Source of the DNA: a virus
Lineage: Duplodnaviria; Heunggongvirae; Uroviricota; Caudoviricetes
Virus record (IMG/VR): IMGVR_UViG_2609459844_000005
Coordinates: 1 to 10,872 of that record
Reading direction: 5' to 3' (one strand)
DNA length: 10,872 nucleotides
Of the stretch, positions 3,001 to 6,000 are shown piece after piece; positions within the stretch are counted from its first letter, which is position 1; the number at the start of each line of letters is the position of its first letter. A program made the position numbers.

Positions 3001-6000
3001 TTGCGCATTGATGCCGAGATACGCTTCCAGTCTTCGCGGTCGTTGTCGATAACTTCATTTTTTGCCCAGCGATGGATGCTGCCGTCAATGTTTCCGGCAT
3101 CCACATCACCAGGCCAGAGAGCGTAGGCCAGTTCGTCATCCAGTGTTTTCCATGTCTGCTTGTATTCGCGATGAATGGCAGCAATGACCGGGTTGATTTT
3201 TCCTGTTGAATTTTCAGTGTGCTGTTGATTGGTTCTGGCGCGGGCGAGATCAACAACAGACGTGTATTTTCCAGTTTCCTTGCGTTCACCTTCGCGACGT
3301 TTTTTCCAGATGCGCATCTCTGCCTGAATTTCGGGCCATTTGGCACCAGGCTTACATTTATGCTTAACCCACCCGATGGCATGCAGCTTAAGCTCCGGAT
3401 ACATGGCGTTAACATCTGGCATTTTCATCAACGCTTCAACGATATGTCCGTCGAATGTTGCCATGTCTTCCTGCAACAATTCCTGTGCGCTAATAACCAT
3501 ATCAACGGTGATGTTTTCACATGTGTCGAACTTAACCATGACAGCGTTCTGTACTTCAGGGGCCAGCTTGTCAAAAGTGACGTTCATCGGATCGGATTCA
3601 GTCTCAACCGGGACAAAGGAAGCAGACTCCTCATCCCAGCGGTTTTCCTGCATATATTCAGCATCCCAGGAATCGAGGGCAGGGCGGGGTATACCGGGTT
3701 TATCCTCGCAAACAAGAAATTTATAAGCGCAGTCCTGAGCAGCCGGATAATGTTCCAGGAATTGCCAGTGAAATTTTGCTCGAGCACGGCGTTCGTCGCC
3801 AGCTTCAATGGCAGTGGCTACAGCGACTGCACCTTCTTCCTTTATTGCCTGTTCGTCCGGAATGGCGGCGCAAATAAAGACTTTACTCATTTTGTTTTAC
3901 CTCATTACAGATTTAAGGGTGAACAAATCCCTGCCATTGCTGGCATATAAGAATGAAATCGGATGTTTATTACGGAACTGTTTTAAAGACCTGCCGGGAT
4001 TTCGTTATTATCCTGGTGAATAACTTTATCGACCGGGTAACAGTTACCGGGAATTTTCTGTTCGGTTGCTGCAGTCACACACTCCTGCATTGTCCTGTGA
4101 ACACTGACTGCAATATCAACTGGCTCTCCGGAAACAAGAAAAACTGTCAGAACAAGTGCAAATGCTGTATTCATTGCCAGCATCCTTTTTGTATCGGACG
4201 TAAACGGGCCAGCATTGAAAGAATGCATATTTTATTTAATAGCTCCCGTTCGTGTTTTCTCTTGTTAATGGCATCTTCAGTAAATACAGGGTTACTGATA
4301 GTGACACCAATTTCAAAACAACCTTCAGACGTATTAACGTTTGGTAATAACGTTTCCATTATCGCGTCCTCAACAATGAATTTTGTGATGCGGTGCCTGG
4401 TGCCTCCAGGTGACGTTAACCAGTTAACAATTAACGCCGGATAACTCCGGATGGTTGGATAAGCTGTAGTGAGCGAATGCCGGATACCAAAACAGCCGTT
4501 CTTGTTGCCAGGGAGTTTGACAGGAAAGGTGACTGGCGAATGAAATGGGCGACTTACATCCCGGGTCATCCTGACGCTAATGATGGGTGGATAATACCTG
4601 GTGCGTCGTGGATACCATCACACTGGATGCCTCTACCAGAACCGCCGCAGGAGGTGCGCCAATGAACTGGCCTGAAGCATTTGCAATTACAGGCGTTGCT
4701 ATGGCTATCGCTTTTTTAGTATATGTTATTTGTCGGTGGGGGTAAAAACGTTCGCCGGGATTAACACCAAAGGAGGGAATATGTCGGATGATATATCACT
4801 GGCAATGGAAGGTGCGCTGGCTGTTGTTGCTGTTGTGGGCGTTTACTGCCTGGTTGTGTTTTTGATGGATCGACTAGGGAACTGAATTCATTACGATATG
4901 GGAATTCCCATATCGGGTAAAAACGGTTTGCGGTAAAGCGAGAGTTAAGTAGAATTGCAGCGGGTGCTTGAGGCTATCTGTCTCAGGCATGAACACCAAA
5001 AGGCAGATAGAGAAAAGCCCCAGTTAACATTACGCGTCCTGCAAGACGCTTAACATTAATCTGAGGCCCAATCTATGTCTCACAAATGTAGGTTAGCCTC
5101 TTACGTGCCGAAAGGCAAGGAGAAGCAGGCTATGAAGCAGCAAAAGGCGATGTTAATCGCCCTGATCGTCATCTGTTTAACCGTCATAGTGACGGCACTG
5201 GTAACGAGGAAAGACCTCTGCGAGGTACGAATCCGAACCGGCCAGACGGAGGTCGCTGTCTTCACAGCTTACGAACCTGAGGAGTAAGAGACCAGGCGGG
5301 GGAGAATCCCTCGCCACCTCTGATGTGTCAGGCATCCTCAACGCACCCGCACTTAACCCGCTTCGGCGGGGTTTGTTTTTTTCTGGCATTCTGGTTTACA
5401 ATTCGCACACCAGCCTGAACAACTGGCACCTGCTGCGCCAGCAGAGACAACCGATGGCGCACGATACCAAATTACACAATTCTGATGATTCTGCCGTCTT
5501 TGCCAGCAGGCACGGGCGGCGTTCCCGCACTTTCAAATCTGACTGGTTCCAGCATCCCCCATGCACTGAAGAACAGGCCGAGTGGCTAATTCAGTGCTAC
5601 CGCAGACACGGATACGAGATTAAGAAAGCCCTCAGCCTCGATTATCGTCACTGGATAATCTCCGTCAGGCTTCCTTACTCCGAACGCCCACCGCGTCCGT
5701 CCCGCACATTCCAGCAACGCATCTGGAGGTAACGTGCGGGTATTACTTCGACCTGTTCTGGTACCGGAACTCGGGCTGGTGATCGTTAAGCCGGGCCGTG
5801 AATCCATGCCGGTATTCCACAATACCCGGGTACTGGTGGAGCCGGAACCGAAAAGCATGCGTAATCTGCCGTCCGGGGTCGTTCCTGCCGTTCGCCAGCC
5901 GCTGGTGGAAGACAAAACATTGCTGCCGTTTTTCAGTAACGCACGGGTAATTCGTGCTGCTGGTGGTGCTGGTGCATTGTCTGACTGGCTGTTGCGCAAT

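Follow-up and report, generated by a model that had tools for sequence, protein, structure and literature searches.

Identity and arrangement of the gene pair

The window analysed here is a stretch of 10,872 nucleotides (nt), positions 1 to 10,872 of the IMG/VR virus record IMGVR_UViG_2609459844_000005 (Caudoviricetes), and this study deals with two small overlapping genes within it, which were identified as the prophage pair dicB-ydfD. An original prediction for this DNA had placed two open reading frames (ORFs) of 62 and 63 amino acids at 3983-4359; these limits proved exact, and the strand, which had been left unstated, is the minus strand. The ATGA overlap that was said to join the ORFs is present as well, reading TCAT on the plus strand at 4171-4174, where the ATG of ORF2 overlaps the TGA of ORF1. 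Translation of 4359..4171 gives the ORF1 protein METLLPNVNTSEGCFEIGVTISNPVFTEDAINKRKHERELLNKICILSMLARLRPIQKGCWQ (METLLPNV...CWQ, 62 amino acids) and translation of 4174..3983 the ORF2 protein MNTAFALVLTVFLVSGEPVDIAVSVHRTMQECVTAATEQKIPGNCYPVDKVIHQDNNEIPAGL (MNTAFALV...AGL, 63 amino acids). The coordinates of all features are listed in Table 1.

ORF1 matched the Pfam family DicB (PF05358) over profile positions 1-62 of 62 (E 1.7e-37, 127.4 bits, cutoff 27) and, also at full length, the NCBIfam family NF049927, 'cell division inhibition protein DicB' (132.7 bits, cutoff 100). It shares 55 of 62 residues (89%) with K-12 DicB, and its DNA is 100% identical to the annotated dicB of Escherichia coli E2863. 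ORF2 matched the Pfam family DUF1482 (PF07358) over profile positions 1-57 of 57 (E 3.7e-25, 88 bits, cutoff 25) and PHROG 1092 (E 2e-37); 59 of its 63 residues (94%) are those of K-12 YdfD, and the RefSeq labels for its DNA are 'lysis protein YdfD' or 'DUF1482 family protein'. Judged from the sequence, both ORFs are far beyond chance. The two genes are already known and constitute the well-studied prophage pair dicB-ydfD. In this window they very probably come from a Qin-like lambdoid prophage, of whose early-left (dicBF) operon they form the distal part.

The guess that one of the two genes might encode a cell-division inhibitor was right for ORF1, since DicB is such an inhibitor, acting in a MinC-dependent manner and also excluding phages that use ManYZ (PMC4967827, PMC6832061). 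The more general idea of small host-directed effectors encoded in the early-left operon of lambdoid phages was likewise sound. The families that had been proposed for comparison, KilR, RacC and YdaE, turned out to be unsuitable, as Pfam assigns only DicB and DUF1482.

The next gene downstream of ydfD codes for an exonuclease, with a Pfam Rv2179c-like 3'-5' exonuclease domain (E 1.3e-67) and a full-length match to PHROG 2082 'exonuclease', and relatives have the same gene order around it. The description of the pair as standing at the head of the exonuclease operon holds for this window only; in intact relatives, the pair lies in mid-operon, downstream of ydfA-ydfB-ydfC-dicF.

Longer forms of both ORFs were also considered. 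A start of ORF2 at ATG 4228 would give 81 amino acids and add an N-terminal region containing lysine or arginine. This start was rejected, since the additional codons fall within dicB, read in a different frame, and since the diverged copy of the PPompW prophage has no open extension and no ATG there; moreover, 18 of 19 distant family members begin at, or a few residues from, the aligned Met. The dicB frame stays open upstream across the deletion junction described below, forming a 132-amino-acid ORF with an ATG at 4569 (4171-4569, minus strand), and the annotation of phage mEp460 also extends dicB in frame upstream (285-nt dicB). The 132-amino-acid ORF is probably fortuitous, because the classical work on dicB (Cam et al. 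in 1988) reportedly found translation from the internal start.

Table 1 Positions of the dicB-ydfD pair, its surroundings and further features of the window
Feature	Position	Strand	Basis or remark
dicB, cell-division inhibitor DicB, 62 amino acids	4171..4359 (stop codon included)	minus	translation, Pfam, NCBIfam, K-12 identity
ydfD, lysis protein YdfD, DUF1482 family, 63 amino acids	3983..4174 (stop codon included)	minus	translation, Pfam, PHROG, RefSeq
ATGA start/stop overlap, dicB-ydfD	4171..4174	minus	sequence; 4-nt overlap kept in 90/92 loci
Shine-Dalgarno-like GAGGA, 7 nt before dicB ATG	4367..4371	minus	sequence reading
Shine-Dalgarno-like AAGGA in dicB 3' end, 8 nt before ydfD ATG	4183..4187	minus	sequence reading
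Retained native dicB leader, 84 nt	4360..4443	minus	alignment to K-12/E2863; megablast query end 594, at 4443
Deletion junction, 7-bp microhomology CCGGATA, dicB leader / DUF551 gene fragment	4437..4443	.	overlapping homologies
Exonuclease, 823 amino acids, next gene downstream of ydfD	1419..3890	minus	ORF list, Pfam, PHROG 2082
xis	1088-1366		beyond exonuclease, downstream arm
int	1-1119		beyond xis, downstream arm
hok/sok type I toxin-antitoxin locus, complete	4962-5287		Rfam sok 120 bits at 4962-5137; Hok/Gef ORF
DUF968 gene	5734-6789		right arm, nin-region/late-regulation genes
RusA gene	6790-7170		right arm
Q-type antiterminator gene	7167-7988		right arm
Three prophage tRNA genes, anticodons CAT, TCG, TCT	within 9662-9911		downstream of DNA methyltransferase
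STnc100 small RNA, full-length match, 139 bits	9989-10179		after three tRNA genes

Distribution and conservation

Of 5,426 complete E. coli genomes searched by megablast with 3850-4500, 4,856 contained the DNA of the pair; the copy number per genome had a median of 2 and reached 17 at most. The E. coli annotation at these sites reads 'dicB: cell division inhibition protein DicB', with 'DUF1482 family protein' or 'ydfD: lysis protein YdfD' beside it and the exonuclease next in order. The best E. coli matches, such as that in E2863, are 100% identical and have the order int, xis, exonuclease, DUF1482, dicB, ydfC and so on. The pair also occurs in isolated lambdoid phages, namely mEp460_ev081 (99.6%), Tritos, PhiR42_1, HannyBb and several vB_Eco phages, all of which show the order int-xis-exo-ydfD-dicB-(DicF)-ydfC...repressor.

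The analysis of conservation covered 95 related loci, drawn from E. coli genomes and phage records as well as from IMG/VR and the GTDB species representatives; 92 of these allowed both genes to be located. In 90 of the 92, the allele of the window included, dicB measures 189 nt and ydfD 189 or 192 nt, both ORFs are intact, and they overlap by 4 nt. These four nucleotides read ATGA in 89 of the loci; the one exception, with GTGA, is the copy of the PPompW prophage, which has only 80% DNA identity. Codon-position counts and ratios of nonsynonymous to synonymous substitution rates (dN/dS, Nei-Gojobori) were obtained from the distinct nucleotide sequences, 20 for dicB and 15 for ydfD. At codon positions 1, 2 and 3, there were 19, 17 and 33 variable sites in dicB and 18, 9 and 32 in ydfD, an excess at the third position in both genes, and the mean dN/dS was 0.45 for dicB and 0.21 for ydfD. 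On the evidence of the 90 of 92 loci that keep the overlap and ORFs, the excess of variable third positions and the dN/dS values, both frames are under purifying selection. A lack of conservation of the frames in related prophages, which would have spoken against the original prediction, was not found.

The YdfD family is small and narrow: a profile search of 1.84 billion cluster representatives yielded 65 clusters at E <= 0.001. In a set with one genome per species, close copies were confined to Escherichia and Shigella, except for one obviously contaminated metagenome-assembled genome. Among 20 aligned sequences representing clusters at 50% identity, C32 of YdfD is invariant and C45 is present in at least 90%, and the core QKIPGNCYPVDKVI is invariant or nearly so among close relatives. 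The family (DUF1482, PF07358) includes the paralogue YebW. Sequence searches of the PDB found no solved relatives of the DicB or YdfD family.

Function of DicB and YdfD

DicB of the window resembles DicB of the K-12 cryptic prophage Qin (Kim) in its length of 62 amino acids, its 89% identity, its place upstream of ydfD and the ATGA overlap, and the two prophages also share the downstream exonuclease-xis-int arm. The allele belongs to the common 'WP_000449192' type of enterohaemorrhagic E. coli and O103 prophages. What K-12 has in addition, namely dicF, ydfABC, dicA/dicC and the dicBp promoter, was lost from the window by the deletion described below. It differs from K-12 DicB at seven positions (K2E, Q35H, V46L, L54P, M55I, P56Q and A61W), residues 1-14, including L5, being identical apart from K2E. 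Work on K-12 DicB found L5 and the first 13-14 residues to be indispensable; truncation showed that the protein can do without its last 8, and position 2 tolerated all three substitutions tested, K2A, K2G and K2R (PMC4967827). Of the seven differences, K2E affects position 2, and M55I, P56Q and A61W fall within the dispensable C-terminal 8 residues; the remaining three are Q35H, V46L and L54P. Since L5 and the N-terminus are kept and four of seven differences affect position 2 or the dispensable tail, DicB of this allele is expected to be active.

DicB inhibits division in dependence on MinC; at the septal ring, to which it is drawn, the DicB-MinC complex blocks the function of the FtsZ ring, and the cells filament (PMC4967827). 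DicB-MinC also inhibits the ManYZ inner-membrane proteins, by which the DNA entry of lambda-type phages is blocked and infection by lambda is lowered (PMC6832061). Like lambda Kil, Rac KilR and P1 Icd, DicB is a small protein of the early-left operon, encoded near exo, xis and int, that blocks FtsZ-dependent division upon prophage induction. It has no sequence relationship to these proteins, only the DicB and DUF1482 families being assigned by Pfam, and according to the literature it acts via MinC/ZipA and not directly on FtsZ.

YdfD of the window and YdfD of Qin are similarly alike in having 63 amino acids, 94% identity, the cysteines C32 and C45, a hydrophobic N-terminus and the coupling to dicB. 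The sequence of the four substitutions (S3T, V6A, M33V and I57N) offers no argument for a functional difference. Overexpression of YdfD lyses dividing cells, and the protein is reported to bind IspG, a cytoplasmic Fe-S enzyme, and thereby to choke the methylerythritol phosphate (MEP) pathway of isoprenoid synthesis (Lu et al. 2022, PMC8835842). The lysis is relieved by overexpression of ispG or by the pathway product. A Förster resonance energy transfer (FRET) signal was obtained in vivo when YdfD-CFP was combined with IspG-YFP, and IspG was pulled down in vitro by a YdfD construct with residues 1-28 but not by glutathione S-transferase (GST)-YdfD without them; the two cysteines of YdfD are dispensable for IspG binding (PMC8835842). 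YdfD is similar to phiX174 E (target MraY), Qbeta A2 (MurA) and M LysM (MurJ) in being a small phage protein that lyses by starving envelope synthesis and not by wall degradation (PMC8835842). It differs from them in its reported target IspG of the MEP pathway and in its unrelated sequence, and also in belonging to a tailed prophage of the holin/endolysin type, of which it is not the main lysis system.

Co-expression of DicB or SulA prevents lysis by YdfD (PMC8835842). With a conserved start/stop overlap and a Shine-Dalgarno motif inside dicB, YdfD synthesis would be tied to and depend on the translation of DicB, as we infer. The lysis factor would then always be made together with the antidote-like DicB, whose division block would neutralise it.

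The N-terminus of YdfD

The first paper on YdfD, by Masuda et al. in 2016 (FEMS Microbiol Lett 363:fnw039), is said to have described the N-terminal 22 residues as hydrophobic and to have proposed an association with the cytoplasmic membrane. These 22 residues were reportedly dispensable for toxicity, the C-terminal part being still toxic. The original prediction had seen at the N-terminus a signal-peptide-like sequence and in the protein a possibly secreted or periplasmic peptide with two cysteines. The features themselves stand, the N-terminus being hydrophobic, with an uncharged run from T3 to G16, and the two cysteines being C32 and C45. The reading drawn from them is not supported.

Two AlphaFold2 runs were made, one with close and one with distant homologues, and both gave the same fold, consisting of a beta-strand (4-12), a second beta-strand (18-26), a helix (29-39) and a third strand (44-48). 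The predicted local distance difference test score (pLDDT) was 77-80 over the two runs, which used different alignments; residues 1-50 reached 80-88, and the five models of the second run had mean values of 73-77. A fold search of the models against the PDB gave no match at E <= 0.001. In BFVD, Foldseek retrieved only uncharacterised small phage proteins with template modelling (TM) scores of 0.6-0.7, none of them at E <= 0.001. We consider it most likely that the hydrophobic N-terminus is not a cleaved export signal but has a structural or binding role, as the first strand of a small beta-beta-alpha-beta fold, or at most associates with the membrane.

In the more likely of the two alternatives, the hydrophobic N-terminal segment anchors YdfD in the inner membrane or associates it with this membrane, and the protein acts from the cytoplasmic face instead of being a soluble beta-beta-alpha-beta protein. 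An inner-membrane-associated YdfD is reportedly the proposal of Masuda et al. 2016. The 19-residue Kyte-Doolittle mean of 1.87 found here agrees with it, and values of at least 1.6 also occur in 5 of the 19 other representatives. The lack of N-terminal positive charges would favour an N-out, C-in orientation with a cytoplasmic C-terminal domain, which is compatible with IspG binding. However, with only 9-14 residues in the members of the family, the uncharged run is too short to cross a membrane as a helix, 14 of 20 representatives have a 19-residue mean below 1.6, and AlphaFold2 predicts a strand and not a helix. In addition, GST-YdfD was purified as a soluble binding partner (PMC8835842). 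On balance we regard membrane anchoring as rather doubtful.

Export of YdfD is unlikely, and a cleavable Sec signal peptide that would release a secreted or periplasmic, possibly disulfide-bonded peptide is very improbable, although several features would suit it. The uncharged run of 14 residues (T3-G16) has the normal length of a signal-peptide hydrophobic core (about 7-15 residues), the 19-residue mean reaches 1.87, and residues 14-17 of this allele, V-S-G and then E, agree with the -3/-1 rule. Two conserved cysteines, C32 invariant and C45 in at least 90% of the sequences, are common in exported small proteins, and a few distant homologues (P0148 and P0165) begin with MK followed by 12-13 uncharged residues. 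Against this, no lysine or arginine precedes the hydrophobic run, either here or in 17 of the 20 family representatives, and many close homologues have F-L-N-T-G-E in place of F-L-V-S-G-E, which puts Asn at the would-be -3 position. L7 and V8 of the recurring motif F-A-L-V are conserved in at least 90% of the family despite a mean identity of 35%. Such conservation of sequence is unusual for signal peptides, which normally keep their hydrophobicity but not their sequence. The confident N-terminal beta-strand paired with strand 18-26 in both AlphaFold2 runs also argues against a signal peptide. Finally, the published target IspG is cytoplasmic; its pull-down requires residues 1-28 of YdfD, the two proteins gave a FRET signal in vivo, and binding persists when the cysteines are mutated (PMC8835842). 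A secreted or periplasmic ORF2 is therefore not supported, on account of the missing basic n-region, the conserved sequence, the predicted beta-strand and the cytoplasmic target (PMC8835842).

Deletion upstream of dicB

Upstream of dicB, the window can be aligned with K-12 and E2863 for 84 nt beyond the ATG, as far as 4443. From 4437 rightwards it shows 99% identity to a region of other prophages that contains a DUF551 gene, which lies on the opposite strand. The 7-bp overlap of the two homologies is the sequence signature of a deletion by illegitimate recombination. Sister prophages at the same attachment site on the potC/potD side carry about 5 kb at the position of the junction, encoding DicF, ydfC, ydfB, ydfA, a LexA-family or cI repressor, cro, ydaT, a replication-initiator-like gene, DUF977 and queH. 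Comparison with these sisters shows that about 5 kb has been deleted here, and with it the operon promoter, the repressor and cro, ydfABC and DicF. An Rfam scan (E <= 1) did not find DicF in the window, and the alignment with K-12 and E2863 shows that its region is deleted. The dicBF-operon context of DicF, ydfABC and a DicA-type repressor is thus missing here, while relatives whose DicB is identical in protein or DNA have it in full. Because of these relatives, the missing context is a secondary loss by deletion and not evidence against homology.

The junction was sought with a 40-mer in the fetched loci and in IMG/VR and with the 30-mer TAACGCCGGATAACTCCGGATGGTTGGATA in GTDB species representatives, without an exact match, and none of the 5,426 complete E. 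coli genomes spans it. Since it was seen in no other genome searched, the deletion is probably recent and strain-specific. To the right of the junction lies the 3' part of the DUF551 gene (ORF 4477-4665), followed by two small hydrophobic ORFs (4587-4745 and 4730-4885).

Some observations concern the leader that was retained. Its distal 52-69 nt (4375-4443, minus strand) recur with 92-100% identity upstream of unrelated genes in other phages, such as kil in Shigella phage 75/02 Stx and terB in P7, and also in D6, POCJ13 and Rac-SA53; in the gathered loci L090 and L089 the matches lie at 1501-1568 and 1501-1553, respectively. The recurring segment resembles a leader common to early-left operons, or the boundary of a module within them. 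Taken alone, the dicB leader folds into two hairpins (-21.3 kcal/mol). Pairing of the DicF 5' end with the dicB leader AACGUCACC, suggested by complementarity visible by eye, was rejected as a candidate, because the RNAduplex energy of -31.1 kcal/mol was equalled or surpassed by 152 of 500 shuffled leaders.

Expression of the pair in this prophage

In K-12, the operon starts at dicBp upstream of ydfA and is repressed by DicA; Rem, urea or heat derepress it, and DicF is processed from the same transcript (PMC10448788). In the window, a consensus scan found no promoter-like site near dicB, none lying within 350 nt; the three sites found upstream of dicB compare with a shuffled expectation of 2.3 +/- 1.5, and those in 3850-5100 do not exceed chance. 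A promoter or terminator created by the junction was considered and discarded: only a 5-bp hairpin (4450-4437) without a proper T-run was seen, and promoter-like sites were no commoner than in shuffled sequences. The pair is probably silent here, or nearly so, beyond read-through, because the deletion took the native promoter together with DicF, ydfABC and the repressor.

Whether the pair is altogether a non-functional relic, intact only because its sole promoter was deleted recently and never expressed here, appears to us evenly balanced. The loss of dicF, ydfABC, the repressor and the early-left promoter region, all of which are present in relatives, speaks for a relic, as does the number of upstream promoter-like sites, which is not above chance. 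The absence of the junction from every other genome searched, which makes a recent, strain-specific deletion probable, would explain the intact frames. On the other side, both ORFs are 100% identical to alleles in intact prophages and show no sign of decay, and antisense transcription of the nin-region side may supply read-through. Without the repressor, moreover, any promoter that remained would be set free; that the strain is viable all the same speaks only for low expression, not for its absence.

It is quite improbable that read-through, or a cryptic promoter close to the junction, sustains weak constitutive transcription of the orphan dicB-ydfD and that ManYZ-dependent phages are permanently excluded in this way. 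If this were true, the orphan cassette would be a domesticated module in which YdfD is kept harmless by its obligatory co-translation with DicB.

Other features of the window

The right-arm genes (5734-8000) are also without a normal source of transcription, because the early rightward promoter was deleted. Within the hok/sok locus, the Hok/Gef ORF is contained in 5075-5287 (E 3e-23), its likely start being the internal MKQQK. The tRNA gene with the anticodon CAT is annotated as tRNA-Ile in a relative and is probably of the lysidine type.

Discussion

Several points weigh against the assignment and the function ascribed to the pair. The mechanism is taken from the K-12 literature, the alleles of the window being 89% and 94% identical to the K-12 proteins. 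The silence of the pair is deduced from missing promoter sequence. The 19-residue mean of YdfD, 1.87, exceeds the usual threshold of 1.6, AlphaFold2 ignores membranes, and the YdfD alignments contained only 19-20 sequences. The toxicity that YdfD is said to retain without its N-terminal 22 residues fits imperfectly with IspG binding by residues 1-28. The IspG model itself comes from a single laboratory and from overexpression (PMC8835842).

DicB has been studied since 1988 and YdfD since 2016, and the pair is among the best-known modules of E. coli cryptic prophages. The locus has little significance beyond its correct annotation, the only unusual point being the upstream deletion; as a natural dicB-ydfD locus without repressor, promoter and DicF, it could serve as a control in studies of operon regulation. 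The family alignment and the two structure predictions suggest that the hydrophobic N-terminus of YdfD forms a core beta-strand and not a signal peptide or transmembrane helix, which bears on the question of where YdfD acts. The ATGA coupling of the lysis gene to its suppressor, which is kept even at 80% DNA identity, fits the view that the synthesis of YdfD without DicB is never intended.

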